From a virus (taxonomy: Duplodnaviria; Heunggongvirae; Uroviricota; Caudoviricetes): 42,538 bases of DNA. The translations under genes and the position numbers were made by a program. The stretch lies in the IMG/VR virus record IMGVR_UViG_2537561945_000004; one strand, written 5' to 3'. Of this stretch, positions 10,516 through 26,273 are shown one piece after another; the first letter of the stretch is position 1; each line of letters starts with the position of its first letter. The notes beneath the pieces were generated by a model. That model saw only the letters and a list, made by a program, of their open reading frames with translations. It was not told the DNA's origin and did not search any database.

Positions 10516-12990
10516 TTATTGCGGAGTGACATCCTGAGGTCTCCACCAGTATGTCTGGTTAAACTCTTTCTTCGAACGTTGCTCCATTTTACGCAAATAG
10601 CCTGGTGAAAAATACTCCTGCATCTGGTTAAAGATCATGTGATCGAGAGCCACCTTCAAGTACCAGAGATTCGCACCAGGCATCAAACCTTTCCCCAGCT
10701 TAACCAGATCACCACCAGTCTGCTCACTCTTCCCTTCCACAGCATTTAACGGTATGCCCTGAGCAATCTTCACTACGTCATCAACCAGACCAGCTACCGG
10801 GCCAAGCATCGACGCCAGCGCGCCGCTTCCGTACCTGGTGTGATCTGACAATAAAAAGTCACCGTAAAGGCCAAGACCACCACCTTTCAGTAGAGCACCA
10901 AGCCAGAATTTTGCGGCATCTTCTCCTGTCATCTCTCGAGGATTACGACCAGACGCAAGGTCGTTAAGTTGCTGCGACAAAGCGCCAAGAATGGTCGTAC
11001 TGGCAATAAACGTCGCAATATATGCCGCACGCCCACCAGCAGACGGCATACCCATAGCGCGTGACCAGTGACGCATAACAACCGAGATAGGGAACGATTT
11101 AAACAGGAAAACACTTCTCGTTAATTCACCTTTCCATGTTCCACGCTGAATACCAGAACCGGTTATCAGTTGCTCACGAGCTCCCGGTGTAATAACAGCC
11201 ATATCAACTTCTTCAGTTACGGCACCGAGCAATTTACGCATTGCCTCAAATTTCACGCGCTCAGGCTCACCAAGATGTTTAACTGCTGAATCAGGGATAC
11301 GCATAATGCTTTCCGGTGTCAGCATCGTATTATTACCGTTCCCCCAGTCCTCCTGTTGCGCCAGCTTCCATACGCTCCAGTCTGTGTCAGTAATCCCTTT
11401 GCTTTTCAGGATACGAAAATCAGAGTCATCGAGGCTACGAAGGTCTGGTGTCCGTGACACTACTTCTCCCAGGCTTCCCATCATGGTTACGCCATAGGCG
11501 CGCTTGTGCGCATCTGACCATGCTGTAAGCCCACTGGCACGCATTACCGCCGTTGCCGCCCAACGAGACACTGACGGCCCCATATTATCCATCGCCCAGC
11601 GGTTAACGCTGCCAAGTAGAGATTCCATCGCCAGACCAGCGCGGCGCGCCCGCGCAAGTTCTGTACGGTTCGTTGGGTCCATAGCTTCAAGCTGGTTGCG
11701 GAATAACTGGTTCATTGGAAGGTTGGTCACCTTCGCAGACAGATACATGGTTCCAAGATCAGAGAACGATGATAGCAACGCGGATCCGAGTCTGCTGGCA
11801 ACCAGCCAGTTGCGGATATTGTCAGACCATCGCGCGATGTGCGGATTCGCTACAGGCTGTGTCTTTCCGGAAATAAAGTTGTACAGATTCTCTGTGTTGT
11901 TCGCCAGCCGCTCGACTTTACCGGTTTTACTCGGGTTAGCTGTTGCCGTTTCTGCCTTCACCTGATCAAGAAGAGAGCGGAAAACATGATCGGGGTTTGG
12001 GCCATATGTTTCCACCAGTGCAATATCTTTACTGATACCTTCCAGGTGACCGACCATGATTTCCCATAGAGAGCGATCGCCATAAAGTTGCTGATATTGC
12101 AGATAGGAATCTGCATCTTTGAAATGTATCTGTCGTGATGCATTACCACGGTTAGCACGTGCGCCGGAAATTCGCATTCCGGTATCAGTAAGCTTATTCA
12201 GCCCACCAGTAGCGATCGTGTTATAAGCCTCTCCAAGAAATGCAGACAACTCGGCATCGTTCATCAGTTGTCCATCGGCTCGGATATAATATTTGCGATC
12301 CAGCTTACCTATAACATCGCTAACCCACTTATCCTTTGATACCGCCCCAACCTTTTCCATAGAATGATGTTGAGGGATCCCCCAGTTTTCGAGATAGCCA
12401 ATGTCCCCACCAGCATCATTAAACCGGCGGCGCAGTAGATCTGTCACTTCTCTCCACGCCTTAGCACCTTTTCTTGCTTTAGCATTGCCAGTATTTTGCC
12501 CTCGCATTTCATATACCAGGTCACGCACGCCAGCTTCATCTTCAAACAGGCCAAAAAAGCGAGGATCAACTGCTTCAAATGCCTCTTGCAATTGACTCAA
12601 TGCATAATCACGAGTAGCTTTTGTTCTGGACTCAACAGAGAGGAAATTCGATTTACCGTCTGCATTAAAAGCAATAGTACGGTTAAGAGCGCCAAGTTTC
12701 CCATCAGCCCCTTGATAGCTATTGATAAATTTATCCAATCTCTGACGTGCGGCTATAGTGAGGGCCACACGACGTTTCTTTAATGCCGCTTCTCGCTGTA
12801 ATTCTTCAGAGGCCAATTGTGCTGCACGATATAGCCGCTCTGATTCGGAAAGTTGTCTCCACGACATCGGGTCATCACGAGCAATGGAGCGCATATTTCG
12901 ATAAATGCGGTCTTCAATGTTCTGTATTTCTCGCGCCGTTAACGTGCGCTGCGCCGCCTGCTGGACCGCTTGTATACATTCCTGTCTCAT
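10516..12990 (-). CDS. Internal virion / ejection protein (large, T7 gp16-like position)
   Basis: 824 aa, last of a run of large proteins following gp14/gp15-like genes; assignment by position and size. Confidence 0.5.
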   Translation of the reverse strand: MRQECIQAVQQAAQRTLTAREIQNIEDRIYRNMRSIARDDPMSWRQLSESERLYRAAQLASEELQREAALKKRRVALTIAARQRLDKFINSYQGADGKLGALNRTIAFNADGKSNFLSVESRTKATRDYALSQLQEAFEAVDPRFFGLFEDEAGVRDLVYEMRGQNTGNAKARKGAKAWREVTDLLRRRFNDAGGDIGYLENWGIPQHHSMEKVGAVSKDKWVSDVIGKLDRKYYIRADGQLMNDAELSAFLGEAYNTIATGGLNKLTDTGMRISGARANRGNASRQIHFKDADSYLQYQQLYGDRSLWEIMVGHLEGISKDIALVETYGPNPDHVFRSLLDQVKAETATANPSKTGKVERLANNTENLYNFISGKTQPVANPHIARWSDNIRNWLVASRLGSALLSSFSDLGTMYLSAKVTNLPMNQLFRNQLEAMDPTNRTELARARRAGLAMESLLGSVNRWAMDNMGPSVSRWAATAVMRASGLTAWSDAHKRAYGVTMMGSLGEVVSRTPDLRSLDDSDFRILKSKGITDTDWSVWKLAQQEDWGNGNNTMLTPESIMRIPDSAVKHLGEPERVKFEAMRKLLGAVTEEVDMAVITPGAREQLITGSGIQRGTWKGELTRSVFLFKSFPISVVMRHWSRAMGMPSAGGRAAYIATFIASTTILGALSQQLNDLASGRNPREMTGEDAAKFWLGALLKGGGLGLYGDFLLSDHTRYGSGALASMLGPVAGLVDDVVKIAQGIPLNAVEGKSEQTGGDLVKLGKGLMPGANLWYLKVALDHMIFNQMQEYFSPGYLRKMEQRSKKEFNQTYWWRPQDVTPQ

Positions 12991-12995
12991 TTAAT

Positions 12996-14798
12996 TTAAC
13001 CTCTCAAGAAACACGCCACAGCGACATCAAACAGGCTGGAGTCCTGTATTGCCTGCTCACTTTCCCTGTTCGCTTCATCCAGTACTTCACGCGCGCTGCG
13101 CGATTGTGGATTACCATCATCATCCAGCACGGTGATTATCATGTCAGGTGATTCAAGCAGCGAGTCTTCAGCTATGCGCAGATCAATATCTCCTGCCTGA
13201 TCCGCCATCATTTTTTGTTCTGCCTGTTGCAATATTTTATCAGGCTCAAAAGGAGCTACTTCGTCTGGCGTCCTGACCTCTGCTGTTTTATAGAATGAAA
13301 CAGCCTGAGCATTAAGTTCACTTTCTACCTGCAGTCGCCGTGCCAGTTCTGCTCGAGCTTCAAAAAACTGACCGCCAGGCTCATGCGGTGCCAACGCGTT
13401 ACGAGAAAATTCCAGGCGTTCTTGTGCCTGCCGGATTCGTTGGTCAATATCGCGAAGTCTGGCCTGTTTATCTGATCGAGCACGAGATAAAGCCTTACCG
13501 CTACCGGTTGGCTCTTCTGCAAGAATTTGTGCGCGCTGTTCAGTGAGATTTTCAATAATTCGTTGGTTATTAGCGATTTCAGACTGGTAAACCTGTCTAT
13601 CGCCACGCGGCAAAAGCTGCGCGGCCCGTTCTTCAAGCAACCGATTTTCTATAGCGCGCGCCGTTACTCCATCATCTACAGATGACAGAGCCTCATTAAC
13701 TGCCTGAGACAGCAGACTCTTGCGCCCAGGAATTTCACTGAAAGATGCAGACTCAACAATGCTGGCAACGTCTACAGGTCTCCCCTGGCTAACATCAGAC
13801 ATGGCTTTTCGCAGAGCCTGAATGTGCGAATTACGCGAAAGCACGTTGATCGGCACGCCGGGAGCAATATCAATTTCAGCATGATGAGCGGCATTCGCCG
13901 CCAGTGCAGCATCGATATCAACTGGTGAAAAATTTGGTGCGCTTGTAGACTCGCCGCGAGAGTTAATAAATCTGCCGACACCACCAAACGCCACCCCAAG
14001 AACAGCATCAATAGCAATTGCCTGTCGATCCAACACATCATACTGGTTAGCCATTTCGCTATAGCCACCATCACGAAGCGTTTTTGCAGTAAGCCCACGC
14101 TGTGCCATACCGAACGCAATATTTGTACCTGCGGCATAGGCAATATCTGGCGTTGCACGTACTGCTGTTGCTGCGGCGCGTCGCACTGAACTCTCACCCG
14201 TCCGCGCAAGCTGAGCCGCCACACCTTCCGCCAGCGCACCACCAGCACGTAACCCGAGGCTCATAGGGATCAGTGTTCCGGCACCAGCAGTAATGCCCTG
14301 CACTAATCCCGCTTCCTGCGCCGTCCTGAAATCAACACCCTGTGCTGTCAGCCGTTCAAACTCAGAAAAACCCTGTAGCGAAGTTACCGCCGCTGCACCT
14401 CCGACAGGACCACCGAGCGTTGTACCGACAACAGCCTGCCCGCCCATATCGAACAACCCATAAAGAACCTGCCCGGCGGTTCCGGTTGTCGCGGCATCAG
14501 GCGTCAGCCGCTTAACCTGCTGCTCTGCTAGTTTTCTCTGCTCGGCAATGTATGAAACTGAAGTATCATTGAGCGAGGTGTTTTCGTTAATAAACTGAGC
14601 AATCGGGGATACGATTTTATCCATCCCTGCCCATAGCAACTGATCTGGCTTTGCCACCAGCCCGGAGTACAAACCAGACAATGCCGCTCCTACAGCATTG
14701 TCGAAAAAACCAACATCGCTGTTAAAGCCCGCTGGATTTGATGCTGCTTCGTCAAGTTGCTGATTCTGGTTTACTGGATTAAGGCCAAAGTAACTCAT
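12996..14798 (-). CDS. Internal virion / ejection protein
   Basis: 600 aa, Ala/Gly-rich with coiled-coil C-terminal half; start overlaps upstream stop. Confidence 0.5.
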   Translation of the reverse strand: MSYFGLNPVNQNQQLDEAASNPAGFNSDVGFFDNAVGAALSGLYSGLVAKPDQLLWAGMDKIVSPIAQFINENTSLNDTSVSYIAEQRKLAEQQVKRLTPDAATTGTAGQVLYGLFDMGGQAVVGTTLGGPVGGAAAVTSLQGFSEFERLTAQGVDFRTAQEAGLVQGITAGAGTLIPMSLGLRAGGALAEGVAAQLARTGESSVRRAAATAVRATPDIAYAAGTNIAFGMAQRGLTAKTLRDGGYSEMANQYDVLDRQAIAIDAVLGVAFGGVGRFINSRGESTSAPNFSPVDIDAALAANAAHHAEIDIAPGVPINVLSRNSHIQALRKAMSDVSQGRPVDVASIVESASFSEIPGRKSLLSQAVNEALSSVDDGVTARAIENRLLEERAAQLLPRGDRQVYQSEIANNQRIIENLTEQRAQILAEEPTGSGKALSRARSDKQARLRDIDQRIRQAQERLEFSRNALAPHEPGGQFFEARAELARRLQVESELNAQAVSFYKTAEVRTPDEVAPFEPDKILQQAEQKMMADQAGDIDLRIAEDSLLESPDMIITVLDDDGNPQSRSAREVLDEANRESEQAIQDSSLFDVAVACFLRG

Positions 14799-17308
14799 TG
14801 CGGAATATCTCCGGAGAATCTCTGACGCTTCTGTGTCAGATCAAGAACAACAGGAGAACCATCATCTTTCAGCAGATAACCAGTACCAAGTTTCACCAGG
14901 TACTGACTATCGCCGTAACTTTGCAAACCATACTGACCAGGCGGTGTTTTTATCCCGGTGCCGACAACTTGTTCATTCCAAGCCTGATTAACCTGCTTAT
15001 CGAATTGCTCTGCAGACATTCCCCACGGCAAAAGGACATTCCCCATTCCGTTATAGTCATGCACGCCACCTGTAGCTACGTTAACAGCCTGTTTCCAGAT
15101 ATCAGTGTCAATTTCGCCTGATACCACGCCTTTTTTCGCCATCACACCAGCGTAATAGTCCTTTGCGATCTCGTATGCCATTGATGCCCCCTGAGCATCA
15201 CCAGCAAATGCACCCTTCACCATGTCAGAAAACTCAAGGCGAAGATCAGCATCTTTAGGCATCGGAATACCTTTCGCATCATCAGTACCTTTACGAGCCG
15301 CCGCGCCAGCAAGAATTGTCTGCGCAGCGGTTTCAGGAGACACGGAAACATCCGGATTAAACCAGTTTTTTTCTGCCAAAATACCACCAGGCTTGTCCAT
15401 CAGTATCCCGGCAACGGCAGCAGATGGAGCGTTGGCACTGATCTGCTGTAGTGCTGACATATACACCTGCCCACCACCAGTGCTCTGCCTGATGGTATCG
15501 AGATATGCTGCCTGTTGGGAAACTGGAGCATCACGAAAGAAAACACCGATCTGATTGGCCTCGTCTTTGGAAAAGAACGTCAGTGGAGTGCCATATGACT
15601 TAGCAAGGTCACTGACCTGAGCGGCACGCAAGGCAACGCTCTGTCCAAAGTTATCCTTATTGCTCATGTCGATAGGCTTTGCCTGTCCGGAGGAAAGAGA
15701 GAACTGCACAGGATCCGACTGCCGCTGCTTTATCACCTGATTTGCAGCAGAAACAACGTTGTCATAAAGAGCTGCGCGTGCCGCATACCCCTCCCCTGTA
15801 TCACCAGTATCCGGGCGTAATTGCTCAACATATGCTGTAATGCTGCTTGTCGGCATGTTGCGGAAAGAGCCTATATACTGTCCAGCGATCTGCGTATTTC
15901 TGAACTCGGTATATCGCAGGTTTCCTTCTCTGACGCCATAAGCTGCAATAAAATCAGCCTCATCTGGTGGGTTAGGAAATTCAACGCCACGCATATACGC
16001 AGCCGTCGCATCGCGAACCTGGCTGTCAATCATCGTTTTATATTCAGCCTGCTGCTGCCGACGCAGTTGATCCGCCTGCCGCATAAAACTTGCCTGAGCC
16101 TCAGGAGATGCCGCATCGAATGCTGCATTACCGGTATAGCGTTTGGTGTTGGTTGGAATTGTTGATAAACCAAGTGCTGCACTGATACCAGCAGTTAACT
16201 GCTGATCACTGTATGGCTGGCTACCGTTCTCATGATGGATAATGGCTGCACAAAGCGCCTTCAGGGTATCAGGATTTGATGCATCGAGAGGCTCATCAGC
16301 AGAAACGCCAAGTTGTTCGCACACTGCTTTGATATACGACATAGTGTCATTTTTATCAGTAGGCGGTGCCCAGCGATTAATTATCTCGCTGACGGTATCA
16401 ATACCCTGCCGCTGATACGACATCAGGTTCCGCCCTAATGCACGAATCCCGTGTTCGGGTGTTTCGAATTTAGCAAATCTACCATCATCACCGGTCTGGC
16501 CTACCCACGGATTAGTTTTGCTGTATTCGAGATTTCCGGGGTTATTGTTGCGTATGCCACGGACACGCTCGGAAGAGCCACTATCTGCTACAGCACGGCG
16601 AGCTCCAGAAGCAGTATCACTTAATTCGCCATTACTTTGGATGAATGCGGTCGCATTGTTTGCCGACCACTGGGACAATGCGGCATCAGCAACCTTCTCT
16701 TTAAACTCGATTTTCTTGGCCTGGATTTGCTCGTCGCTCCAGCCATGCGCAATGCCGTAATCCTCAATTTGCTGGAAAGTTTGCTTATTAGCCAATACGT
16801 ATGCGGCGTTGTCGCCATACAATGCTGCGGCATTTTTACCATTGTTCAGCAGCGTAGCCTGAAACTGGCCTTCTTCGTAGGCATTTATTTGCCCTATCTC
16901 GTGCCGCCCGGCCTGCGTAGTGAACTGAATGCGCTGCTGCTGCGCCTGCTGCATGAAAGCATTACGAGCCTGTTCATCCGGCAGCGACATAGCCAGTTGT
17001 TCGACCTGAGCATCAAACTGCTGCGTATACTCCTGACCTTTTCCAATAGCATTTTTCCCTTTCAGGTTAAGCAAACCTGTTTCAGGGTTATTCAGCAGAT
17101 CACTGCTTATCTGACTGAGGTTAAGAGATGCCTCCTGAGCCAGAGCGATATTGGCACGCTGTTTTGCCTGACCAAAAACATCAATTGCCTCTGCCCCTGC
17201 CCGAACAAAAGCATCACCAATACCTGGCTGAGAAAACGTCTGCAAGCCTGCTGACTGAACTCCACGGCTCTCAACCTGACGTCCGGATACTGTTGGTACG
17301 ACTGGCAT
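14795..17308 (-). CDS. Internal virion protein (T7 gp15-like position) with central IRNNNPGNL-containing domain
   Basis: ATG 17308 (MPVVPTV...) overlapping the stop of the gp14-like gene; track ORF extends to GTG 17383. Confidence 0.55.
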   Translation of the reverse strand: MPVVPTVSGRQVESRGVQSAGLQTFSQPGIGDAFVRAGAEAIDVFGQAKQRANIALAQEASLNLSQISSDLLNNPETGLLNLKGKNAIGKGQEYTQQFDAQVEQLAMSLPDEQARNAFMQQAQQQRIQFTTQAGRHEIGQINAYEEGQFQATLLNNGKNAAALYGDNAAYVLANKQTFQQIEDYGIAHGWSDEQIQAKKIEFKEKVADAALSQWSANNATAFIQSNGELSDTASGARRAVADSGSSERVRGIRNNNPGNLEYSKTNPWVGQTGDDGRFAKFETPEHGIRALGRNLMSYQRQGIDTVSEIINRWAPPTDKNDTMSYIKAVCEQLGVSADEPLDASNPDTLKALCAAIIHHENGSQPYSDQQLTAGISAALGLSTIPTNTKRYTGNAAFDAASPEAQASFMRQADQLRRQQQAEYKTMIDSQVRDATAAYMRGVEFPNPPDEADFIAAYGVREGNLRYTEFRNTQIAGQYIGSFRNMPTSSITAYVEQLRPDTGDTGEGYAARAALYDNVVSAANQVIKQRQSDPVQFSLSSGQAKPIDMSNKDNFGQSVALRAAQVSDLAKSYGTPLTFFSKDEANQIGVFFRDAPVSQQAAYLDTIRQSTGGGQVYMSALQQISANAPSAAVAGILMDKPGGILAEKNWFNPDVSVSPETAAQTILAGAAARKGTDDAKGIPMPKDADLRLEFSDMVKGAFAGDAQGASMAYEIAKDYYAGVMAKKGVVSGEIDTDIWKQAVNVATGGVHDYNGMGNVLLPWGMSAEQFDKQVNQAWNEQVVGTGIKTPPGQYGLQSYGDSQYLVKLGTGYLLKDDGSPVVLDLTQKRQRFSGDIPQ

Positions 17309-18317: not shown

Positions 18318-20788
18318 CAGAATCCCCCAACAGTAAGGCGAGGAATAACGGCAAGAACAGACAGCGGCAACGGGTCAAGCTGACGGATTTTTACACGCCC
18401 GTTTTTGCCCCAGTTACTGTCCAGTTTCACTTCTACTTTTCCGGTAGCATCATCAACAGGATCATCGTAGAACTCGAATTCACGCTGTGGATATTCGTAC
18501 CATTTACCGCCGGGCGTAGTCGCCCAGATGCCGCGACTGGCATTCACAACCAGAGTAACGGACGGGATCACCTGTTTTTTGTCCAGCAGCGTTTCCTGTC
18601 CGTTAATGTTGATATCCAGTGTTTCGAATTCAGCAGTTATTGGCAGGCCGATGTGCACAACAGCCCCCGGTGATTCCAGCGTGACGGCACCTCCGGAAAC
18701 CACTTTTTGTGGTTCCACGTTCGCATCAGAGAGGATGTTTACGGTCTGGCCTTCAAGATGAGACAAGCCGCCAAATGTCCGGCGCGCCATCTGCCAGTTC
18801 GTGGTGGCCACATTCCTGAGGGATGGCGGGACGTTCCTGTTAGCACGAACCACTACTGCGGTATTGCTGGTTACAGAAATAATGTCGCAACGTAATTCTT
18901 TTGACACTTCATCGCCAGTATCAGGATCAGCTCCGGTATAAGGGAACTGTAGTTGCGCACCAACATCACTACTGGTGAAGTACGCACCACCAGAAACACT
19001 GATTGTATATTCCGCGTGGTAATCCCATTCACCAGAACCACCAGTGATGGTCATCGTTCTGTCAGACGTATTTCTTCCATCATAGCTAAGGCCAGAATCA
19101 ACAAAGAAAGCATCTTCATCGCTGGTAAATAAACGGCTGGACAGTCTCTCGATGTATCTCACTGTTTGCCCGTTAACGGTTCTGTTAACGACGAAATACA
19201 CTGCATCTTCATTGCCTTCGCTGATACTGCATGTGCTTTCATATTTTCCGGTACTGGATTGTGGTGCCCATGCAAAAACCTGCTGATCACGCAAATAGGT
19301 CATCACCAGTAATTTACCGTCATCACGAATGCAGAAGGCACTGGAGTAAGGGACAATCGAGAAGCACCAGTCAACAATGCTGTGCTTCTGAAAAAGATGA
19401 TTGGCAAGGATAGTAAGGTCGTTCCCCTGATAGCCGTCAACATCGAATGAATAGGCCAGATCACGGACAACACTGCCTTTCTCCTGGACGAACAGAGCAA
19501 TATTCGCCACAGCAATTGGTGGGACGTTGCTTGAGCCATTTGATCCCTGAGAGCTGAATGCAAATGATGATGGGGTTAACACTTTGTTCTGGTCACCGGT
19601 GATGACGTACTCACCTCCGGAAGTCAGCGCCACCAGAGAACCAACATCAATCAGGTGACGGATCTCATTAACCTGACGCCCGGCATAGGTGTAGATAATT
19701 CTGTCGTCATCCTGCGTAGGATTGCTTTTGCCAAAATCCTTATAATCCCCGGTACGGCTGGCCCAGATAGTCTGAGGGAACGCAGTCGATGCGGCGAAGT
19801 AAAGACGTTGTTGATAATAAACAACAGTGCCAGGATAACCATTAACACTGTTCCAGGCATATTTAGCCCATTTATAGCTGGCATTATCCTCGCCCACGAC
19901 CTGCGAAGGGATATAGGAAATCACCTCGGCAGTTGCAGTAGTTCCATTTGCAGCAGTGATACGGGCAATGCCAAAACCACTGTGCAGATATTCCCACTCA
20001 ATGCCAGTATCATCATCACCGGATCCGCCCCAGCCATCCCATGATGTGCCTTCTGTATGCGAAGGGCGCAAAGTACCTGTTTTGCCTGCTGTAACGGCGC
20101 GATAGTAGTTACTGTCTGCACGGCGAATATCGCCAATCGACGTACTCTTACTGGTTTCCCATACCGGCACTGAATCCACTGCAGGCTGTTCCAGATAGAA
20201 CAATTTGCCTACCTGCTCCGCGCCAAAAATAGAGGCGCTTGCCGTTAACGTAATTGTCCCGGTGCTGGCGCTGGCATAAACCGTCACTGACTCGTCAATA
20301 TTGATATCTTCAAATGGCCCGTTCTTCGTTACCACATCAACCAGTTGCCAGTTGTCATGAGCATATCGGCGCAACTCTTTCGGCGGGTATGCCGGGTGAA
20401 CCAGCGTAAGCACGTCGGCGCTTTGCGTGAATTTAATTCGGAACAGATCGGCTTCAGTATATGGCGTGGCAATTTCATAAATAACATTGCTGCTGTTCAG
20501 CACCAACGCACCATCTTTGATAACGCGCATGTACTGGTGTCCGAACTCCAGAGCATAGGTCTGAACCGTCGAGAACTGGAACGGGATCAGGCGGCATTTC
20601 CGATTTGGGTATTTGGCGGCACCGACAAAACGCGTACCAGGTCGATTCTCAACGCCGCCATACTGCCGCACGATAAAGTTATCGCACTTGCGCAATGCTA
20701 CCTGGTACTTCGCCATGTCAATACGCCCGTACAACGACGGTCCAATCTCACCACCGGCAAAGCTGGGCTGGATCCAACTGATAGCCAT
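18317..20788 (-). CDS. Tail tubular protein B-like (nozzle; T7 gp12-like)
   Basis: 823 aa; N-terminal pattern IQPSFAGGEIGPSLYGRIDMAKYQ typical of podoviral tail-tube B proteins. Confidence 0.55.
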   Translation of the reverse strand: MAISWIQPSFAGGEIGPSLYGRIDMAKYQVALRKCDNFIVRQYGGVENRPGTRFVGAAKYPNRKCRLIPFQFSTVQTYALEFGHQYMRVIKDGALVLNSSNVIYEIATPYTEADLFRIKFTQSADVLTLVHPAYPPKELRRYAHDNWQLVDVVTKNGPFEDINIDESVTVYASASTGTITLTASASIFGAEQVGKLFYLEQPAVDSVPVWETSKSTSIGDIRRADSNYYRAVTAGKTGTLRPSHTEGTSWDGWGGSGDDDTGIEWEYLHSGFGIARITAANGTTATAEVISYIPSQVVGEDNASYKWAKYAWNSVNGYPGTVVYYQQRLYFAASTAFPQTIWASRTGDYKDFGKSNPTQDDDRIIYTYAGRQVNEIRHLIDVGSLVALTSGGEYVITGDQNKVLTPSSFAFSSQGSNGSSNVPPIAVANIALFVQEKGSVVRDLAYSFDVDGYQGNDLTILANHLFQKHSIVDWCFSIVPYSSAFCIRDDGKLLVMTYLRDQQVFAWAPQSSTGKYESTCSISEGNEDAVYFVVNRTVNGQTVRYIERLSSRLFTSDEDAFFVDSGLSYDGRNTSDRTMTITGGSGEWDYHAEYTISVSGGAYFTSSDVGAQLQFPYTGADPDTGDEVSKELRCDIISVTSNTAVVVRANRNVPPSLRNVATTNWQMARRTFGGLSHLEGQTVNILSDANVEPQKVVSGGAVTLESPGAVVHIGLPITAEFETLDININGQETLLDKKQVIPSVTLVVNASRGIWATTPGGKWYEYPQREFEFYDDPVDDATGKVEVKLDSNWGKNGRVKIRQLDPLPLSVLAVIPRLTVGGF

Positions 20789-21396
20789 CAGGACAACCTC
20801 GCAATGGTAAACTCATCAACCGGTGGCTGTGGTTCCTGTGATTCATTCTGGCTATGCGAGCCAGCACTAAGAATCACGCGATTGTACATATTGAGGGCAA
20901 ACGTACCGAGGTCTGCATTCCCAGTCAGCGCCATGTTAATAGCTGCCGCAAGACGCCAGGCCAACGCCTCCATAAAAATGGCATCAAACATGTTCACATC
21001 TGTAACGCGAGAGACATACTTGAGCCATGCCTGAGGCTGGTCTGTGTAGATCAACTTTCCTGTTCCGTTGGTGTCTGCACCAACTTCGTACTGAACGCGC
21101 ATTGCTGCTGTTGGATTGCGTACACCAGGAAGCATAATTTCAGTAATGCGCAGACAATCTGACGGGTACTGGTACGCATATTCCCAGTCAGGCGGTGGAT
21201 TGCTCGTATCTGCAAGCGCCACGCGTTTGGTAGCAAAGTTCCAGTCAAAATCAGAAAGCACAGCATCACGACAGGCCTCAAAGTGCAGCGAACATTCCCC
21301 CGCTTCCTTGCTGGCTTCCGTCAGGCTGTTAATGCTGCGGCTGTTGCCAATATTGGACAGCGCACGATTACAGATCTCTACTACAGAGGCCATCAC
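20788..21396 (-). CDS. Tail tubular protein A-like (adaptor; T7 gp11-like)
   Basis: 202 aa; N-terminal pattern VVEICNRALSNIGNSRSINSLTE...DFDWNF parallels T7 gp11. Confidence 0.5.
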   Translation of the reverse strand: MMASVVEICNRALSNIGNSRSINSLTEASKEAGECSLHFEACRDAVLSDFDWNFATKRVALADTSNPPPDWEYAYQYPSDCLRITEIMLPGVRNPTAAMRVQYEVGADTNGTGKLIYTDQPQAWLKYVSRVTDVNMFDAIFMEALAWRLAAAINMALTGNADLGTFALNMYNRVILSAGSHSQNESQEPQPPVDEFTIARLS

Positions 21397-21722
21397 TCAC
21401 CTCCGTTACCGTACAGAGTTTCAGCCGCTGATTTTTCTACATCCCCGGAAACAGGAGCGATCGCCATATCAGTGATCTGCAGATCGGCGCTGCGATTAAC
21501 GCCATCGTTAGTTTCTCTGGCAGACAGGCCTCGAATAACAGCCTTTGCAGTTATCATCACTTCCGTTCCGACGCCCTTAGGTTGCGCCTTCAGCTTATTC
21601 AATGTGTCGTTATTAAGAGTGATGCACAGCCCCCACGGGTATTCATCGCGAGTTCTGGTTTCTCCGCTCTCATCCTGGTAGCTGTCAGTGCCGGTTTTGA
21701 GGTTTACGAGTTCCATATACAC
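21393..21722 (-). CDS. Hypothetical virion/head-completion protein
   Basis: ORF track; GCAGGAGT RBS; in structural operon. Confidence 0.45.
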   Translation of the reverse strand: MYMELVNLKTGTDSYQDESGETRTRDEYPWGLCITLNNDTLNKLKAQPKGVGTEVMITAKAVIRGLSARETNDGVNRSADLQITDMAIAPVSGDVEKSAAETLYGNGGE

Positions 21723-21766: not shown

Positions 21767-22111
21767 TTACACGCCCAGTTCTTTACGCTTATCTGCGATC
21801 TTCTCGCGGAGCGTTTCGGCTTTGGCGTTATGGTGTGGCTTCTCGTTAAAGAGCAATTCGTACTCTTCACGGAGCTTATCCAGCTCACCATCATCTGACA
21901 CATCGTTGATGATTTTGGTACTGGTTGCTGCCATTGACACCTTTCCTGCTACCTTTGCTTTTGCCTGTCTGGCTGCATCGTTAACAGGTTCCAGTGCGCT
22001 ACCAGGCTCACCTTCGTATTCGATTTCTGCCCCCTCCGGCCACAGAGTGTTATGGATATGAGAGAGGCGCAGAACGCGGTATCTTGGTTTCTCACCTGAC
22101 ATCGATATCAC
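21767..22111 (-). CDS. Hypothetical structural protein
   Basis: ORF track; 114 aa, charged, in structural operon. Confidence 0.45.
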   Translation of the reverse strand: MISMSGEKPRYRVLRLSHIHNTLWPEGAEIEYEGEPGSALEPVNDAARQAKAKVAGKVSMAATSTKIINDVSDDGELDKLREEYELLFNEKPHHNAKAETLREKIADKRKELGV

Positions 22112-22112
22112 C

Positions 22113-22550
22113 TTAACCAGTTACTTTTGAGCGGATCGGATACGGCGTATTGGCATCAACATCAAGACTGATACCAGCAGTGAATTCGCCAGCCGTTAGT
22201 GGGCCAGTTGCGACGGAGTAGTTAACACGCAGATATCGCTGAACACCGGCAGGCACCTTTGCAGAAACAACTCGTTTACCTGCTGTCAGGGCGGTCTTTG
22301 CCAGTGCACCACTATCATAAATAGTGGTCCATGAGCTGTTATTCTCACTCGTCTGCAACTGGATGTTTACAGTTGCCTCACCACTTGCCGTGGCGGCTTC
22401 GTTAACCAGCGCCCAAAACTCAAGCGGGTAACCCACGCCGATATCACGACGTTTTCCGTCAATTGGACCGAGATCGATTACGTCAGTAGAAGCCGCGGTA
22501 TTCGTAACCGCCTGAGCTTCGGAGAACATCAACAGTTTGTCGGTGATCAT
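22113..22550 (-). CDS. Virion structural protein (possible capsid decoration protein)
   Basis: 145 aa beta-rich protein directly downstream of the major capsid gene; GGAGAAAG RBS. Confidence 0.45.
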   Translation of the reverse strand: MITDKLLMFSEAQAVTNTAASTDVIDLGPIDGKRRDIGVGYPLEFWALVNEAATASGEATVNIQLQTSENNSSWTTIYDSGALAKTALTAGKRVVSAKVPAGVQRYLRVNYSVATGPLTAGEFTAGISLDVDANTPYPIRSKVTG

Positions 22551-22601
22551 CTTCTTTCTCCATTAGTGGGTCTGTTACGACCCACAGGTTAATAACAGGC
22601 G

Positions 22602-23594
22602 TTACACCACGCGGGCTTCTGTTTCCAGAAGCGCATCAGTTTCACGGATTGGTACACCACGGAATGAAGTCCACCACTCGCCTTCAGTCTCTTTTACGCT
22701 GATAGCCAGAGATGTTTTCTCCAGAGATTGCAGATCAAGAGCCTGGCCTACAGTGCGGTTCATGTAGAACACCGGGCGGCCCATTCCACGGTTTGGAATG
22801 CGATGCAGTGCTTTAACCATCAACTTCGCAATATTTGCGGCAGAGGAAGGTTCTGAAAGATTGCTGACATCGATGTTTGCAATGCGAACAACATAACGCC
22901 AGTCACGCAGAGCAAGTCCGTTGTCCCATTTGTAATGGGTGCGATAGCCTTCGTACTTGCCGCCATTAGCATCTTCCAGTGTCACCTGGCCTTTATCTTC
23001 CATCTGGATGCCAGCCTTCTGCCCTTTCGGGAAGATGCCATGCACGGTGTTTTCGCCCCACACCACTAACCAGATTGAGGTGTTATCTGTACCCGTGCCA
23101 CCAGCATCAATGATGTTCTGAGCATTACCCGCAGACAGGCTGGAATAGCGGGAGGACAGTCCCATAAACTGCTGAGGGTTAACGCTGGAATCACCATAAA
23201 ACAGCGTCTGCGCCATCTGCTGATTCATCGCTTCAATAAATGCGCGGTCTTCAGACAGGCGGAATTCAGCGGTATTGCCGTTCAGATCAGCCAGTGACTT
23301 ATCGACTTCAGCATAGGTTTCCAGCATGCCAACGGAATCGGTTACCTGCACTGTGGTTGATTTGCTTGGCTGTACGCCATAGTTCAGCAAACGCCAGGTA
23401 GCTGAAGGTAAACCAGAACGAATGGTGGTTCGGTGTCCGGTAGGAAGGTTCCCTTCGACAAAAGGCATATCCTGAAGGATCGGGTTAGTTTGACCGAGAA
23501 GCTCGATAATCTTATCGACTTTCCCGTTTGGATCGACGCGCTTACCCCAGTCAGCCATCGTTAGCGCAGTTAAGCCTTTAACAGCCATTGTCAT
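22602..23594 (-). CDS. Major capsid protein
   Basis: 330 aa, directly downstream of the acidic scaffold gene and upstream of a stem-loop (22567-22586); position and size typical. Confidence 0.6.
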   Translation of the reverse strand: MTMAVKGLTALTMADWGKRVDPNGKVDKIIELLGQTNPILQDMPFVEGNLPTGHRTTIRSGLPSATWRLLNYGVQPSKSTTVQVTDSVGMLETYAEVDKSLADLNGNTAEFRLSEDRAFIEAMNQQMAQTLFYGDSSVNPQQFMGLSSRYSSLSAGNAQNIIDAGGTGTDNTSIWLVVWGENTVHGIFPKGQKAGIQMEDKGQVTLEDANGGKYEGYRTHYKWDNGLALRDWRYVVRIANIDVSNLSEPSSAANIAKLMVKALHRIPNRGMGRPVFYMNRTVGQALDLQSLEKTSLAISVKETEGEWWTSFRGVPIRETDALLETEARVV

Positions 23595-23602
23595 TTCCTC
23601 TC

Positions 23603-24304
23603 TTATTTGCCATAGAGCACTTCGGCCGCACTACGCTGGCCTTCATTACCACCGGTGACCATGCCATCTTCAGACATCGCCTTTCCGATTTTCACGAACG
23701 TTTTGACCAGATCAGGGTGATTACCCAGCCCGGTGGTGTTCAGATATTCTTTGAGTTCAGGTGTCCCGAACTGGTCAAGCGCACGCTGTGCGGCGCTAAG
23801 GTTAGAAATCAACTTGTCGCCACCGATTTCTTTGTCAGCTTTTACATCCGCAGCCCACTGCTCGGTTGTTTTCTGCCAGGCTTCTGCCTGGCGCTGCTGA
23901 ACACCTGCCAGAATCTTCGGATAAGCATCAACCAGCTTTTGCGCTTGCTCGTTGGTCAGGTTAAGTTCTCGCGCCACCGGCTCGAATTCATTCAACGCTT
24001 CTGTATCCAGCTCTACGCCTTCGGCAGCCTGAAACTCGTACTTCTCAGGCGCACCCTCTGGTTTATCGCCGTCCTTTTTTTCATCCTGCTTATCGTTTTC
24101 AGGCTTTTTGTCATCAGCAGGTTTATCGCCATCAGCAACAGGTTGTGGCTTATCACCTTCCTGTTGTGATGGATCACCAACTGGAGCAGGGTTATCACCT
24201 GCAGGCGCTGACGGTTCTGACGCAGCCGGAGCTGCTCCACCATCGACTGGTTGCTCATTGCAAAGACGGCGATACAGCAAACGCTCAAATAAATTCATGA
24301 TCAC
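23603..24304 (-). CDS. Scaffolding protein
   Basis: 233 aa, highly acidic, Pro/Ala/Asp/Lys low-complexity N-terminal half plus helical C-terminus, between portal and capsid. Confidence 0.55.
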   Translation of the reverse strand: MIMNLFERLLYRRLCNEQPVDGGAAPAASEPSAPAGDNPAPVGDPSQQEGDKPQPVADGDKPADDKKPENDKQDEKKDGDKPEGAPEKYEFQAAEGVELDTEALNEFEPVARELNLTNEQAQKLVDAYPKILAGVQQRQAEAWQKTTEQWAADVKADKEIGGDKLISNLSAAQRALDQFGTPELKEYLNTTGLGNHPDLVKTFVKIGKAMSEDGMVTGGNEGQRSAAEVLYGK

Positions 24305-24597
24305 TCCTGTTCACTGGCCTCTTTGGCCATCTTCAAATACTGTTCAGGGCAATGCGCCATAACGCGCTGAAACAGTTCCAGCGCCAGATTGCGTTGCCCC
24401 TCATTAAATGCCATTGCCATAGCGTCCATCGGTGAGATGGCGGAAAACACACGGCCTTTCTCCAGCACCGACCAGACAACGCGACGCCCCTGTTCACTGC
24501 TCATGACAAAGCGAATGTCATCAATTTCACGCTGCGCCATGTCACGTTGCTTACGGGCGTTTTCTTCTTTCAGTTGATCGTCTTCGTAATCTGTCAT
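24301..24597 (-). CDS. Hypothetical small protein between portal and scaffold
   Basis: 98 aa; overlaps portal stop and scaffold start (translational coupling). Confidence 0.45.
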   Translation of the reverse strand: MTDYEDDQLKEENARKQRDMAQREIDDIRFVMSSEQGRRVVWSVLEKGRVFSAISPMDAMAMAFNEGQRNLALELFQRVMAHCPEQYLKMAKEASEQE

Positions 24598-26273
24598 TGT
24601 GATTGCCCACCCTGACCACTAACTGCATTCGCCATAGCTGACAACACACTCGGATCCGAAGTTTTAGCTTCGCTTAGCGTCTTGGCCCCCTGTGCCGCCG
24701 CCATCCCCATCGCCATCATTTGTTGCTGCTGTTGTTGCTGTGCCCGTTGCTGGCGAGCCTGCTCAACCTGTTCCTGCGGAACAATGACGGTTGGAGACAC
24801 TCCGGACATATCAGCGAATGCATCGATCGCCTGATCAACGTTGAGTTTGTCGAGAGCTTCTGGTTTCGCTTGCGCAAGTTGACCAATGAAGTTGACCGTA
24901 GACGCCAGACTGGACAGGCCGATAGACTTCTGCGCCTGAGCCATGACGGAAATGTATTCGACCTTCAGGGGCATACCTTCCATCGCGTCAGGCGGTGGCG
25001 GCAGCATGTTTTTACGCACCATCATCGAGAAAGCGCGGTCAATGAGAGGATTAAGACATTCGTCGTTCAGACGCTCCAGAACCGGCCCCAACATCAGAAG
25101 TTTTTCTTCTTTCATTTCGATCACCGCTTCAACAGGCATCGAGCGGGTATTGATGTTCTGCAACATCATGAACAGATCGACAAAGTAGGCGCTGTTAATA
25201 ATTTGGCGAGTGTCCTGAATGTCTGCTACCAGATCTGCTGTACTGGGGTTAACCAGATAAGCAGGCCTGAAACCATCCTGACCAGTAATCTGATCGATAT
25301 ACGTGATGTCGCCAGGAAGAAGGGAGGCGCGCTGATTCTTGAGGGAAGTCGGAGCAACCATCGGCGGATTGGTGGCTTTATCAATCAACTGCGACTTGCG
25401 CTTCTGGAGAAGCTGCAATGCCTTAACAGGTCCAAGCGCCAGCATACCCGGGCATGATGATCCATAAACATCTTCGCCGTTAACTTCCCAGCGCGGAGCC
25501 ATAATTGGAAACTCATCGAATCCGGACTCACGCAACAACTTGTCGTTATCGCCACCAACCTCGTAATAAACCGATTTGAATGGCTTGTTCTTGCTATCCA
25601 GCTTCGATGTATCGCGGTCAATGTTCGGGTAAACCGAATGCATCACTTCAATCCACTTCTCGTAGGTGCCGCTTTCCCACATGCTTTTTACGGATTCGCT
25701 GACGTTATTTAGCCCGAACTCCTGAACAAGCTGACGAACAGTCATAGAGAACTTGCGAAAACAGGTGTCCACACTGCCACGAGGTGAGTTAGCCAGGTAG
25801 TAACTGCCTATCGGGAATGGCATTGTGCGAATGATGTCCTCGTCATCCTCCAGCACTGCCATTGCACCAGTGCTGTATGTGCCGAGGCTTCCGTATAACT
25901 GCGGCAGAGACTGATAGAGATTCGACTTATTGAACATATCGTTCATGCGGTTCTGCACCGCCTCAAGCCACAACTTAACAGGGCCATAATCCATCATTTC
26001 AGGATCTGGCGTAGCCAGGCGAAACCACGGACGCGCGGGGCTTGTGATGCCTGACATCATGCCGCTGGCGAGAGTGCGCGCCGCCATAGTCCCGGTCGAA
26101 TCAATAATGCGTGTATTGCGTCGATCGTTACGGTTGACCTCAGAAGTCAGAAAGCGGGAACCACGCGGGTTGATGTAATCACTCAACTCGCGCCAGTGCG
26201 GCTCGAACGACTGACGCTCGCTTTCAAGTTGTGCGAACTGTTTGTTCAATCGCTCTTTAGTTGTTTCCGCCAT
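24594..26273 (-). CDS. Portal (head-to-tail connector) protein, T7 gp8-like
   Basis: 559 aa; Gln/Ala/Met-rich C-terminal tail (QQRAQQQQQQQMMAMGMAAAQGA) like T7-type connectors; GGAG RBS. Confidence 0.7.
   Translation of the reverse strand: MAETTKERLNKQFAQLESERQSFEPHWRELSDYINPRGSRFLTSEVNRNDRRNTRIIDSTGTMAARTLASGMMSGITSPARPWFRLATPDPEMMDYGPVKLWLEAVQNRMNDMFNKSNLYQSLPQLYGSLGTYSTGAMAVLEDDEDIIRTMPFPIGSYYLANSPRGSVDTCFRKFSMTVRQLVQEFGLNNVSESVKSMWESGTYEKWIEVMHSVYPNIDRDTSKLDSKNKPFKSVYYEVGGDNDKLLRESGFDEFPIMAPRWEVNGEDVYGSSCPGMLALGPVKALQLLQKRKSQLIDKATNPPMVAPTSLKNQRASLLPGDITYIDQITGQDGFRPAYLVNPSTADLVADIQDTRQIINSAYFVDLFMMLQNINTRSMPVEAVIEMKEEKLLMLGPVLERLNDECLNPLIDRAFSMMVRKNMLPPPPDAMEGMPLKVEYISVMAQAQKSIGLSSLASTVNFIGQLAQAKPEALDKLNVDQAIDAFADMSGVSPTVIVPQEQVEQARQQRAQQQQQQQMMAMGMAAAQGAKTLSEAKTSDPSVLSAMANAVSGQGGQSQ

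Follow-up and report, generated by a model that had tools for sequence, protein, structure and literature searches.

Phage phiV10, which belongs with Salmonella phage epsilon15 to the genus Uetakevirus, is a close, sequenced relative of the prophage considered here, and the P22 design is the other common plan of temperate podophages in enterobacteria. Two related virions have been described structurally: the core stack of epsilon15 resembles that of T7, and its ejected internal proteins form a periplasmic tube (PMC8954989), while cryo-EM of a Xanthomonas relative revealed that its portal, adaptor, nozzle and core are all T7-like (bioRxiv 10.64898/2026.02.16.706137). Furthermore, the tail of a relative, the marine podovirus Carin-1, has been solved (PDB 8CK0/8CK1), and four of its components are homologous to the present prophage's portal, adaptor, nozzle and tailspike N-terminus.

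The prophage and its integration site

A preliminary description of the window (the whole stretch of 42,538 nucleotides that we analysed) had placed a T7-type virion core within a temperate genome at positions 10516-26273. These coordinates are exact: 26273 is the portal start codon and 10516 is where the last large gene ends, and 14 contiguous intact genes on the minus strand lie between them. The region matches phiV10 at 98.6% identity over its full length (100% covered) in a single piece, so the module is real, far beyond chance. Tyrion, PAT1 and epsilon15 match at 75-82% identity, epsilon15-like phages being a comparison that the preliminary description had proposed, and all 14 virion proteins have exactly the lengths of their phiV10 counterparts. 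These sequence comparisons support assigning the virion (head, tail and DNA-injection) module to a temperate podophage from the epsilon15/phiV10 group. The complete genomes of E. coli BE311, F41, K99S and EC24.26 carry a prophage that matches this region at 100% identity.

Four features outside the virion module locate the prophage and its packaging genes:

1162..1178, no strand: 17-bp attachment core ATTGAGTGGGAATGATT, prophage-end copy, mapped onto the window from a direct repeat in the BE311 locus
28035-29510, minus strand: terminase large subunit
29507-30181, minus strand: terminase small subunit
41282..42538, minus strand: P4-family tyrosine integrase, 418 aa (Pfam Arm-DNA-bind_3, Phage_int_M and Phage_integrase)

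Homology to phiV10 starts at window position 1162, and the second copy of the attachment core is formed by the guaA 3' end, immediately outside the window. The integration locus is this end of guaA in E. coli; in strain BE311 the integrase, which is 98% identical to that of phiV10 and whose start codon is the window end, adjoins guaA. The integrase had been called P4-type, and its three domains agree. The terminase genes lie upstream of the portal, as described earlier, and the pair (28035-30181) matches PF03592 Terminase_2 (4.6e-29), phrog_2 and phrog_51 and is 96% identical to phiV10 genes 1-2. The proposed lambdoid early region is borne out as well: it encodes a replication protein like lambda P, an initiator like DnaT, RecT and an HTH repressor, and it includes ea22-like genes.

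Portal, capsid and tail proteins

Reading from just upstream of the portal to the nozzle, and including a tailspike gene outside the studied region, the genes are as follows:

26288..26494, minus strand: conserved 68-aa ORF, epsilon15 gp3 homologue (phrog_831, 2.4e-36)
24594..26273, minus strand: portal protein, 559 aa, T7 gp8 family (Pfam PF12236, 1.6e-187)
24301..24597, minus strand: Bbp19-like small protein, 98 aa (Pfam PF25181, 2.8e-17)
23603..24298, minus strand: 231-aa protein, public label "protease" (phrog_458 "protease")
22602..23588, minus strand: major capsid protein, 328 aa, epsilon15 gp7 family (Pfam PF20911 GP7, 2.1e-149)
22113..22550, minus strand: Bbp16-family protein, 145 aa (Pfam PF21190 Bbp16, 2.5e-48)
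21767..22102, minus strand: 111-aa protein, epsilon15 gp9 homologue (phrog_590, 3.5e-61)
21393..21716, minus strand: capsid staple protein, 107 aa, epsilon15 gp10 family (Pfam PF21628 Gp10-like, 8e-52)
20788..21393, minus strand: tail adaptor, 201 aa, T7 gp11/tail tubular protein A type (PDB 8ck1_E, 3.9e-26)
18317..20788, minus strand: tail nozzle, 823 aa, T7 gp12/tail tubular protein B type (PDB 8ck1_A "Tail Nozzle", 3.7e-218)
3176..5338, minus strand: tailspike, 720 aa, with a gp17-type N-terminal domain and an SGNH/GDSL hydrolase domain

The nozzle is followed by genes for proteins of 154, 181, 837, 600 and 824 aa. The order from portal to gp15 position and two further large genes had been recognized as that of T7; this order holds, though four small genes (those for the Bbp19-like, Bbp16-like and 111-aa proteins and the gp10 staple) had been left out. 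It is also kept in phages of Pseudomonas, Xanthomonas, Vibrio, Pelagibacter, Bordetella, Burkholderia, Caulobacter, Acinetobacter and Liberibacter. Among 10 relatives compared, 9 keep the Bbp19-like gene directly after the portal, only 2 possess the 111-aa protein, and 7 have a homologue of the 68-aa ORF just upstream of the portal. This ORF begins with MC and carries a basic ...RRR..G.S-STILTG motif; neither T7 gp6.7 nor gp7.3 matches it significantly.

Profile tests independently reproduce T7-type relatedness, to gp8, gp11, gp12, gp13 and gp14, carried by the portal, adaptor, nozzle, 154-aa and 181-aa proteins, respectively, and outside the studied region the tailspike N-terminal domain adds gp17. 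All of these links are at the level of profile or fold, with profiles built from small alignments; pairwise BLASTP and phmmer searches against T7 proteins gave nothing significant. The portal falls in phrog_332, which cross-hits T7's phrog_449 reciprocally; it aligns with the T7 gp8 family in hhalign (P 98.5, E 3.8e-15, 496 columns; P 0.2 for the P22 portal) and matches the portal in PDB 8ck0_A (5.7e-179). The adaptor, whose PDB match is the "Connector Protein" of Carin-1, scores P 92.5 with the T7 gp11 family (E 5e-7, 140 columns) and P 1.2 with P22 gp4; the RefSeq note for epsilon15 already records an HHpred match to T7 tail tubular protein A. The nozzle aligns with the T7 gp12 family (P 97.1, E 7.7e-11, 266 columns) and has no hhalign match to P22 gp10. 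Residues 11-167 of the tailspike match the N-terminus of T7-group gp17 (P 97.1, E 5.5e-11), residues 1-127 match the Carin-1 tailspike Dpo31 in PDB 8ck1 (4.7e-25), and Pfam returns a faint PF03906 match and a GDSL match (PF13472, 2.1e-10). These matches support a gp17-type tail-attachment N-terminus, to which an SGNH/GDSL hydrolase is joined as receptor domain.

The major capsid protein has no profile match to T7 gp10 or P22 gp5 and is, by its sequence family, of the epsilon15 type within the HK97 class. PGAP names the 107-aa product "capsid staple protein" and the 145-aa product "Bbp16 family capsid cement protein", a family named after the BPP-1 capsid cement protein. The 231-aa protein between portal and capsid had been called a scaffold, whereas public records say "protease", a label that in phiV10 and epsilon15 stems from legacy similarity. 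Pfam, NCBIfam and PDB give no relative. In an alignment of 9 homologues, the N-terminal half is low in complexity and rich in P/E/D/K/G, a conserved Ser/Asp/Cys triad is absent, and the only invariant residues besides Met1 are A119, W148, G160, H194, P195 and Y229. The alignment thus favours the scaffold over the public label, and composition and position make a scaffolding-type protein more likely than a protease.

Presumed internal virion proteins and a putative injection mechanism

The remainder of the module putatively encodes internal virion proteins:

17853..18317, minus strand: 154-aa internal virion protein, T7 gp13 homologue (phrog_308, 9.2e-63)
17308..17853, minus strand: 181-aa internal virion protein, T7 gp14 family (Pfam PF24072 T7_gp14, 3.5e-7)
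14795..17308, minus strand: 837-aa virion protein with an internal lysozyme-like (Enc34-type) domain (PDB 9vvp_L, 7q47_A)
12996..14798, minus strand: 600-aa all-helical protein (phrog_1145)
10516..12990, minus strand: 824-aa all-helical virion protein (phrog_684 "virion structural protein")

The 154-aa protein shares phrog_308 with T7 gp13 (1.1e-42 for the latter), and in hhalign it reaches P 89.9 with T7 gp13 and P 98.5 (E 2.6e-15) with PSSP7_032, the gp13-position protein of P-SSP7. The PF24072 match of the 181-aa protein spans residues 1-163 at 30.7 bits against a cut-off of 27, and PGAP names it "virion core protein, T7 gp14 family". Like T7 gp14 it has an MC start and an ...APIxAAxGT... 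C-terminus; a small hhalign profile gave a negative result with the one T7 gp14 sequence.

The 837-aa protein derives from an 862-aa ORF whose true start lies 25 codons downstream, as annotated in phiV10. Its lysozyme-like peptidoglycan hydrolase domain (approximately residues 250-400) matches PDB 9vvp_L Gp29 (5.2e-38) and 7q47_A "Endolysin" (2.7e-17), both over the domain only. It shares 50-55% identity with the gp16 N-terminus ("internal virion protein D") of K1F-type relatives of T7, among them K1F itself, EcoDS1 and SH5. Outside this domain the 837-aa protein has no similarity to T7-group gp15 or gp16. The earlier term "gp15-like" is therefore positional only, since neither this nor any other protein of the module is detectably similar to gp15, including gp15 of T7, SP6, phiKMV and P-SSP7 in the case of the 837-aa protein. 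We presume that it is an ejection protein.

The 600-aa protein matches no known relative. Its family comprises 1343 representatives, and in other genomes its homologues are fused at the C-terminus to ART-PolyVal, ddrB-ParB, Zeta toxin, GGDEF or SLT domains, effector domains of the polyvalent-protein type that are typical of injected proteins. Its AF2 model (pLDDT 80) is helical throughout and matches no PDB fold below E 0.1; the N-terminal part is Gly/Ala-rich, and there is one hydrophobic segment (residues 260-278). It is presumed to be an ejected carrier or channel protein. The AF2 model of the 824-aa protein (pLDDT 69, pTM 0.67) gave 55 Foldseek matches in BFVD at E<=1e-3, including internal core or internal virion protein D of RSB3 (7e-8), BB8 (8e-8), LKA1 (3e-7), PAO1_Ab05 (2e-6) and LIMElight (5e-6), phages of the phiKMV type. 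The 824-aa protein has no match in PDB, and sequence-profile support for the gp16 link was weak and unstable (P 37 in one run, <20 in another). In predicted fold, the 824-aa protein resembles a gp16-type ("internal virion protein D") body, a comparison of one predicted structure with others, all of helical proteins.

On the model of T7, and of what cryo-EM and tomography have revealed of epsilon15, a portal of twelve subunits would bear the adaptor ring and a six-fold nozzle, and six tailspikes may dock on this assembly through their gp17-type N-terminal domains. The gp14-like protein and the 837-, 600- and 824-aa proteins would be packaged as an internal core atop the portal. Upon O-antigen processing by the tailspike, core proteins could exit via the portal-nozzle channel, after which the 837-aa protein would cleave peptidoglycan with its lysozyme-like domain, and the helical proteins may build a conduit for DNA across the cell envelope. 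The 231-aa protein would most likely serve as assembly scaffold rather than protease. Including this mechanism and the scaffold assignment, we consider it very probable that a temperate podophage like phiV10, of the genus Uetakevirus, has integrated at the guaA 3' end of E. coli and that the region is its late (virion) operon.

Alternative readings and comparison with known phages

Alternatively, the 837-, 600- and 824-aa proteins could be external tail-tube or hub components. Nonsense mutants had earlier led to this proposal for epsilon15 gp15, gp16 and gp17, and older genetics, as relayed in PMC12391199 (citing Guichard et al. 2013), puts gp15 and gp16/17 in the tail apparatus, listing gp15 and gp17/16 beside gp4 and gp20 in the packaging and injection device. 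Annotations of the three proteins say only "head protein" or "virion structural protein", and no solved structure places them. However, adaptor and nozzle homologues, of which the solved Carin-1 tail is built, already account for the hub, and the large genes occupy the exact place of T7 gp14-16, directly behind the gp13- and gp14-family genes. The gp16-type hydrolase domain, the internal virion protein D fold, the injected-effector domains of the 600-aa family and the reported ejection of the epsilon15 core (PMC8954989) also argue for internal proteins, making external placement quite improbable. A siphovirus or myovirus tail module has practically negligible probability: its sole hint comes from the 837-aa protein, which matches phrog_2276 "tail length tape measure protein" at residues 210-446 (2.2e-32), overlapping the lysozyme-like domain, whereas no family of tail tube, sheath, baseplate or tape-measure proteins was matched outside this shared domain. 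The closest phages are all podoviruses, with solved short tails among relatives, and the region contains no siphovirus or myovirus tail genes, whose presence had been named as evidence against a T7-type core.

A P22-type (Lederbergvirus-like) module would fit the temperate lifestyle, O-antigen-specific tailspike and lambdoid early genes, and adaptor and nozzle folds are generally common to the P22 and T7 groups (PMC4362835). Yet it was not supported by hhalign, in which the families of the module reached P<=2.6 with each of P22 gp1, gp4, gp10, gp26, gp7, gp20 and gp16 as against P 90-98.5 with T7 counterparts; the portal belongs to the T7 gp8 family and a needle (gp26) homologue is absent, so that this reading is very improbable. 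The prophage could also be a defective remnant whose virion module is intact but which no longer yields infectious particles. An IS2 copy (8234-9564) adds 1.3 kb, bringing the prophage to ~41.6 kb, larger than the 39.1-kb phiV10 genome, and a BRO-N antirepressor-type gene is frameshifted. We regard this reading as unlikely, since the 14 virion genes, both terminase subunits, integrase, repressor, replication and lysis genes are full-length ORFs, the IS2 lies within an accessory DUF4760 gene, and an IS2-free copy, 100% identical, in several unrelated strains points to recent mobility.

The module is an ordinary virion operon of the already known phiV10/epsilon15 type. The capsid gene does hold the place assigned to it in the T7 order, but the shell, with its staple and cement-family genes, is of the epsilon15/BPP-1 type and in this differs from T7.

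A phiV10-like prophage and its virion module

The 14 contiguous minus-strand genes at 10516-26273, which run with almost no intergenic space from the gene for a 559-aa portal protein to that for an 824-aa protein, form a virion module that is not new: it belongs to an already known, structurally studied and sequenced phage group. By megablast, the whole region aligned in a single piece with Escherichia phage phiV10 (98.6% identity, 100% of the query), followed by O157 typing phages 9 and 10, phiv142-3, ZX5, PAS61 and HEMP4 (98-99%); Enterobacter phage Tyrion matched at 82% and Salmonella phages PAT1, 65FD and epsilon15 at 75-76%. Predicted protein lengths equal those of the phiV10 annotation in 14 of 14 genes; a mechanically listed 862-aa ORF begins 25 codons too far upstream, and its real product is 837 aa. 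The preliminary description, made from the sequence alone, had placed the module's boundaries exactly, one at the start codon of the portal gene and the other where the last gene ends, while its gene list needs the addition of four small genes (Bbp19-like, Bbp16-family, 111-aa and gp10-type staple).

Since epsilon15 and phiV10 were already known as temperate podophages whose portal, tail and core are T7-like, and since the region is near-identical to phiV10 and identical to prophages in public genomes, the finding carries no novelty. Its discovery value is small, and the useful yield is a clean gene-by-gene assignment for a module whose public labels are uneven ('head protein', 'protease', 'hypothetical'). 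Scanning IMG/VR viral contigs with the nozzle gave 80 loci, all 99-100% identical and with no diversity, and NCBIfam gave nothing useful for ten module proteins. Because phages of the phiV10 type are employed as reporter phages for O157 and supply O-antigen-specific tailspikes, it is of some practical use to have the injection proteins annotated correctly.

The DNA of the window comes from an E. coli chromosome. Over positions 1-8235 and 9564-42538 it shows 100% identity to a prophage found in BE311 and in three other complete genomes. Of 5,426 complete E. coli genomes, 98 or more carry the same prophage, counted as 80% or more of the first 25 kb, and so do hundreds of contigs in IMG/VR. In BE311, it lies between guaA and yfgI/yfgH. 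One copy of a 17-bp direct repeat, ATTGAGTGGGAATGATT, makes up the 3' end of guaA, and a second copy is at window 1162-1178, the point from which the window is homologous to phiV10. The start codon of the P4-family integrase gene, whose product has integrase domains, coincides with the window end. These domains and the att repeat at guaA bear out the earlier reading of a temperate genome with a P4-type integrase.

The whole-genome comparison proposed beforehand found kinship with Uetakevirus, the epsilon15/phiV10 group. BLASTN identities summed over all pieces come to 30,812 identical bases, or 78.8% of phiV10 and 76.9% of the window's prophage part without IS2; this similarity of about 77-79% is approximate, being summed BLASTN rather than a VIRIDIC calculation. 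Against ICTV thresholds of at least 70% nucleotide similarity over the genome for a genus and 95% for a species, it places the prophage in Uetakevirus and under the species line. The collinear order typical of the genus is also present (terminase, gp3, portal through gp17, then tailspike, as in phiV10 p01-p20 and epsilon15 gp1-gp17). Podovirus morphology is predicted for the particle from its 98.6% identity to phiV10 and from its adaptor and nozzle homologues.

A complete IS2 (window 8234-9564, 1331 bp), of which many plasmids carry copies with 100% identity, interrupts a DUF4760 accessory gene of the prophage and is bordered on each side by the duplicated 5-bp target GGAAG. Its absence from the otherwise 100%-identical prophages of BE311, F41, K99S and EC24.26 indicates a very recent insertion. 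The 283-aa ORF at 30675-31526, with DUF551 as its C-terminal domain, is uninterrupted, although the identical BE311 sequence is annotated as two separate partial pseudogenes; the ORF is probably a recombinant gene of the nin region and not a broken one.

Features outside the module are as follows.

3176-5338: tailspike, outside the region, whose N-terminal domain is a homologue of the tail-binding domain of T7-group gp17
6707-6891 and 6940-7651 zone: isrK Hfq-binding RNA and C4 antisense RNA, adjacent (Rfam 67.7 and 63.6 bits)
26921-26997, plus strand: tRNA-Arg(TCT), inside the terminase-portal segment
27148-28038, opposite strand: 296-aa ORF, hydrophobic in its N-terminal part and coiled-coil in its C-terminal half

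The segment from the terminase large subunit to the portal (26500-28038) differs from phiV10. Its 296-aa ORF, which looks like a moron, has no Pfam match, and PADLOC gave only weak SMC-like coiled-coil matches (DndD, 2.8e-5). Immediately downstream of the two RNAs follows a BRO-N antirepressor-type gene, which a frameshift has split into two ORFs; this layout resembles P1/P7-style antisense control of an antirepressor, with the target gene broken here.

Portal, tail and capsid genes

Pairwise searches (BLASTP and phmmer) of each of the 14 proteins against T7 gp8-gp17 yielded nothing significant, so the relationship is remote and T7 is reached by profiles only. Family alignments of the window with ten relatives (epsilon15, BMP-1, MPK9, Bolivar, Vibrio MZH0603, Pelagibacter Skadi-3, Burkholderia KL4, Caulobacter BL94, Acinetobacter Ab9 and one Liberibacter phage) were therefore compared by hhalign with alignments from T7, SP6, phiKMV and P-SSP7, with P22 proteins as the control. 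The portal matched T7-group gp8 (P 98.5, E 3.8e-15), belongs to Pfam PF12236 (1.6e-187), and has reciprocal PHROG cross-hits with T7 gp8. The adaptor matched gp11 (P 92.5, E 5e-7; P22 gp4 P<=1.2) and the nozzle gp12 (P 97.1, E 7.7e-11; P22 gp10 P<=1.2). Direct Pfam or PHROG cross-hits from these two to T7 gp11 and gp12 are absent; their PDB homologues carry the names connector and nozzle, and the curated epsilon15 record already notes an HHpred match of epsilon15 gp11 to T7 tail tubular protein A. The genes of the gp13 and gp14 homologues follow that of the nozzle immediately: the 154-aa protein matched gp13 (P 89.9) and the gp13-position protein of P-SSP7 (P 98.5) and shares phrog_308 with T7 gp13, while the 181-aa protein scores over the curated cut-off of Pfam PF24072 (T7_gp14). 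Outside the module, the tailspike N-terminus matched gp17 (P 97.1, E 5.5e-11, 147 columns), with a faint PF03906 match. At the level of sequence profiles, the evidence-based T7 correspondences are thus gp8, gp11, gp12, gp13, gp14 and the gp17 N-terminus, and the T7-type identities proposed earlier for gp8 and gp11 through gp14 are upheld by hhalign (P 89.9-98.5 for gp8, gp11, gp12 and gp13) and by PF24072 (gp14).

Two other family assignments were weighed. A P22-like (Lederbergvirus) virion module is rejected: the P22 portal, gp4, gp10, gp26 needle, gp7, gp20 and gp16 all gave hhalign P<=2.6, and the profile comparison of structural proteins that had been suggested at the outset matched the portal, adaptor, nozzle and 154-aa protein to T7-group counterparts and not to P22 ones. 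Membership in the T7 family proper, Autographiviridae, has the virion design in its favor, but that family is defined by a phage-encoded single-subunit RNA polymerase and a strictly lytic life. The phiKMV RNA polymerase gene alone takes about 2.4 kb, and outside the virion genes, tailspike, terminase and integrase the window has no ORF above ~330 aa; an integrase, a repressor and att sites are all present. With no ORF of RNA polymerase size and with these temperate traits, this assignment is rejected too, and the virion design alone is shared with the T7 family.

Judged from sequence families, the capsid gene set departs from T7. Its capsid protein falls in the epsilon15 gp7 family (PF20911), the accessories are a gp10-type staple (PF21628) and a Bbp16-family protein (PF21190, named for the BPP-1 cement protein), and there are small genes for a Bbp19-like and a 111-aa protein as well. 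Between portal and capsid lies the 231-aa gene, which phiV10, epsilon15, PHROGs and PGAP all label 'protease'. In an alignment of nine homologues, however, its N-terminal half is low-complexity, acidic and proline-rich, and a conserved Ser/Asp/Cys catalytic set is absent; the protein has no relatives in Pfam, NCBIfam or the PDB. A scaffold, as the preliminary description had it, is more likely than a protease, though the label stays putative.

A 68-aa ORF directly upstream of the portal (26288-26494) keeps its position across the wider epsilon15/BPP-1-like supergroup. It begins Met-Cys, like T7 gp6.7 and gp14, and its basic RRR...STILTG motif recalls the C-terminus of T7 gp7.3. Homology to T7 gp6.7 or gp7.3 was considered and dropped, the comparison not being significant.

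The three large proteins

The three large proteins that follow the gp14 homologue (837, 600 and 824 aa) correspond less directly to T7. No protein of the region matched gp15 of T7, SP6, phiKMV or P-SSP7 by BLASTP, phmmer, hhalign or PHROG, and since all these searches were null, any gp15 correspondence is positional only; the 'gp15-like' label given earlier to the 837-aa protein lacks sequence support by these methods. In hhalign comparisons of the three families with gp14, gp15 and gp16 of the same four phages, none reached P>=20 except the 824-aa protein against the C-terminus of SP6 gp37 (P 37), a match that was unstable between runs. Profile searches of PDB sequences with the 600-aa, 824-aa and 231-aa families returned nothing, and Foldseek searches of the PDB with the 600-aa and 824-aa models gave no match below E 0.1.

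The 837-aa protein contains an internal lysozyme-like domain (approximately residues 250-400) akin to PDB 7q47 'Endolysin' (2.7e-17) and Gp29 of PDB 9VVP. By tblastn, this domain shares 50-55% identity with the gp16 ('internal virion protein D') N-terminal domain in K1F, EcoDS1, SH5 and other T7 relatives, and it also matches the Hafnia phage Enc34 endolysin. Homologue searches with the whole protein, as a single sequence or as a five-sequence profile, found only near-identical enterobacterial copies unfit for a profile. Most of its E. coli homologues (relatives P0001-P0120) are 935 aa long and share the N-terminal 70% of the query at 98-99%. Since only this part is shared, the C-terminal third has been swapped, and the presumed ejection protein is mosaic within one phage group.

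The 600-aa protein belongs to a family of 1343 representatives, and its AF2 model is all-helical (pLDDT 80). Homologues elsewhere carry C-terminal ART-PolyVal, ddrB-ParB, Zeta toxin, GGDEF, LPD3 or SLT domains; such domains are a signature of 'polyvalent' proteins that are injected with DNA. In Burkholderia phage KL4, the 600-aa homologue bears the transglycosylase domain that is located here in the 837-aa protein. Hydrolase and effector domains appear to move between large internal proteins. The model of the 824-aa protein (pLDDT 69, pTM 0.67) matches predicted structures of internal core proteins and internal virion protein D from phiKMV-type and other T7-like phages (E 1e-8 to 1e-5); its sequence-profile signal to gp16 is weak and not reproducible.

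Taken with the predicted fold, these similarities make it plausible that the gp16 correspondence is split over the 837-aa protein (hydrolase) and the 824-aa protein (body). A more far-reaching and rather doubtful reading is that the part of the module from the gp14 homologue onward encodes a four-component ejectosome (181, 837, 600 and 824 aa) rather than a simple copy of T7 gp14-15-16. The gp16 functions would then be divided, the 837-aa protein carrying the hydrolase and the 824-aa protein supplying the gp16-type body, with the 600-aa protein as a separate, widespread carrier scaffold by which other phages take 'polyvalent' effector domains (ADP-ribosyltransferase, ParB-like, Zeta toxin, GGDEF) into their hosts. 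In that case the epsilon15 ejection proteins as assigned in a review (Table 1 of PMC8954989) would be wrong, and the true set would be gp14-gp17. That table gives gp11 as 229 aa, gp12 as 499 aa and gp13 as 708 aa, whereas the epsilon15 record has a gp11 of 201 aa (adaptor), a gp12 of 825 aa (nozzle) and a gp13 of 154 aa (gp13 homologue). These sizes do not fit, and the table seems to describe another, P22-like phage; on the evidence here, gp14-gp17 are the epsilon15 candidates.

A proposed ejection mechanism and comparison with known systems

How the module may work can be inferred from T7 and epsilon15 work (PMC8954989) and from the PhiXacm4-11 preprint, joined to the gene identities established here. 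A dodecameric portal would bear the adaptor ring and a hexameric nozzle, to which six tailspikes would dock by their gp17-type N-termini. The gp14-like and three large proteins would form a core on the portal within the head and be expelled once O-antigen had been processed; the lysozyme-like domain of the 837-aa protein could then open the peptidoglycan, and the helical proteins could form a conduit across the envelope. The tailspike retains the N-terminal anchor of phiV10/epsilon15, but an SGNH/GDSL hydrolase domain (PF13472, 2.1e-10) replaces the receptor-binding domain of phiV10, and the O-acetyltransferase gene oac, downstream of the tailspike in phiV10, is missing from the window. Together these suggest an esterase-type (deacetylating) spike for a different O-antigen.

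The module is collinear with that of Uetakevirus phiV10 (NC_007804) and has the same architecture at 98.6% identity, and identity is 96-98.5% for the genes of terminase, integrase, recombination and replication. The phiV10 tailspike aligns with that of the window in its N-terminal part only (86%). The window also differs in its tRNA-Arg and 296-aa ORF between terminase and portal, a different nin-like region, extra phosphatase and DUF4760 genes, and the IS2 insertion. Salmonella phage epsilon15 (Uetakevirus epsilon15, NC_004775) is the group's structural model, with gp7 capsid, gp10 staple, portal, six-fold tail hub and an ejected internal core (PMC8954989, PMC12391199). It keeps the same gp3-gp17 order with a homologue for each region gene, but its DNA identity of ~75% covers the middle of the region only, its gp16 (634 aa) and gp17 (918 aa) exceed their counterparts here in length, and its tailspike and serotype-conversion genes are different.

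The closest solved structure is that of Cobetia marina podovirus Carin-1 (PDB 8CK0/8CK1, source phage identified via its tailspike Dpo31), with homologues of the portal (5.7e-179), nozzle (3.7e-218), connector/adaptor (3.9e-26) and tailspike N-terminal domain (4.7e-25). Carin-1 is marine, with another host and another receptor-binding domain, and PDB searches found no chains homologous to the 837-, 600- and 824-aa proteins.

Across the epsilon15/BPP-1-like supergroup (Bordetella BPP-1/BMP-1, Kelquatrovirus KL4/BcepC6B, Pseudomonas MPK9, Xanthomonas Bolivar/PhiXacm4-11, Pelagibacter Skadi and Liberibacter SC-type phages), module order is kept at 20-45% protein identity, with homologues of the portal, Bbp19, 'protease', capsid, Bbp16, adaptor, nozzle, gp13- and gp14-like and usually the large proteins. 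The large internal proteins range from one of 1900-2800 aa up to three, and KL4 has its hydrolase domain in a different protein than the window does. In Bolivar (9992-13095 of its locus, L087) and Xanthomonas relatives, the nozzle homologue is split into two adjacent genes, which fits the gp30:gp31 heterodimeric nozzle described for PhiXacm4-11; in the cryo-EM work on that phage, portal, adaptor and nozzle are described as T7-like, with a core lying over the portal (bioRxiv 10.64898/2026.02.16.706137).

With T7, the module shares the order portal, assembly protein, capsid, adaptor, nozzle, gp13, gp14, large internal proteins and fibre, as well as one internal protein with a peptidoglycan hydrolase domain. 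It departs from T7 in a terminase that lies upstream of the portal rather than at the genome end, in additional capsid accessory genes, in three rather than two large proteins after gp14, in a hydrolase domain that is internal and of the Enc34/K1F type, and in belonging to a temperate genome with an integrase.
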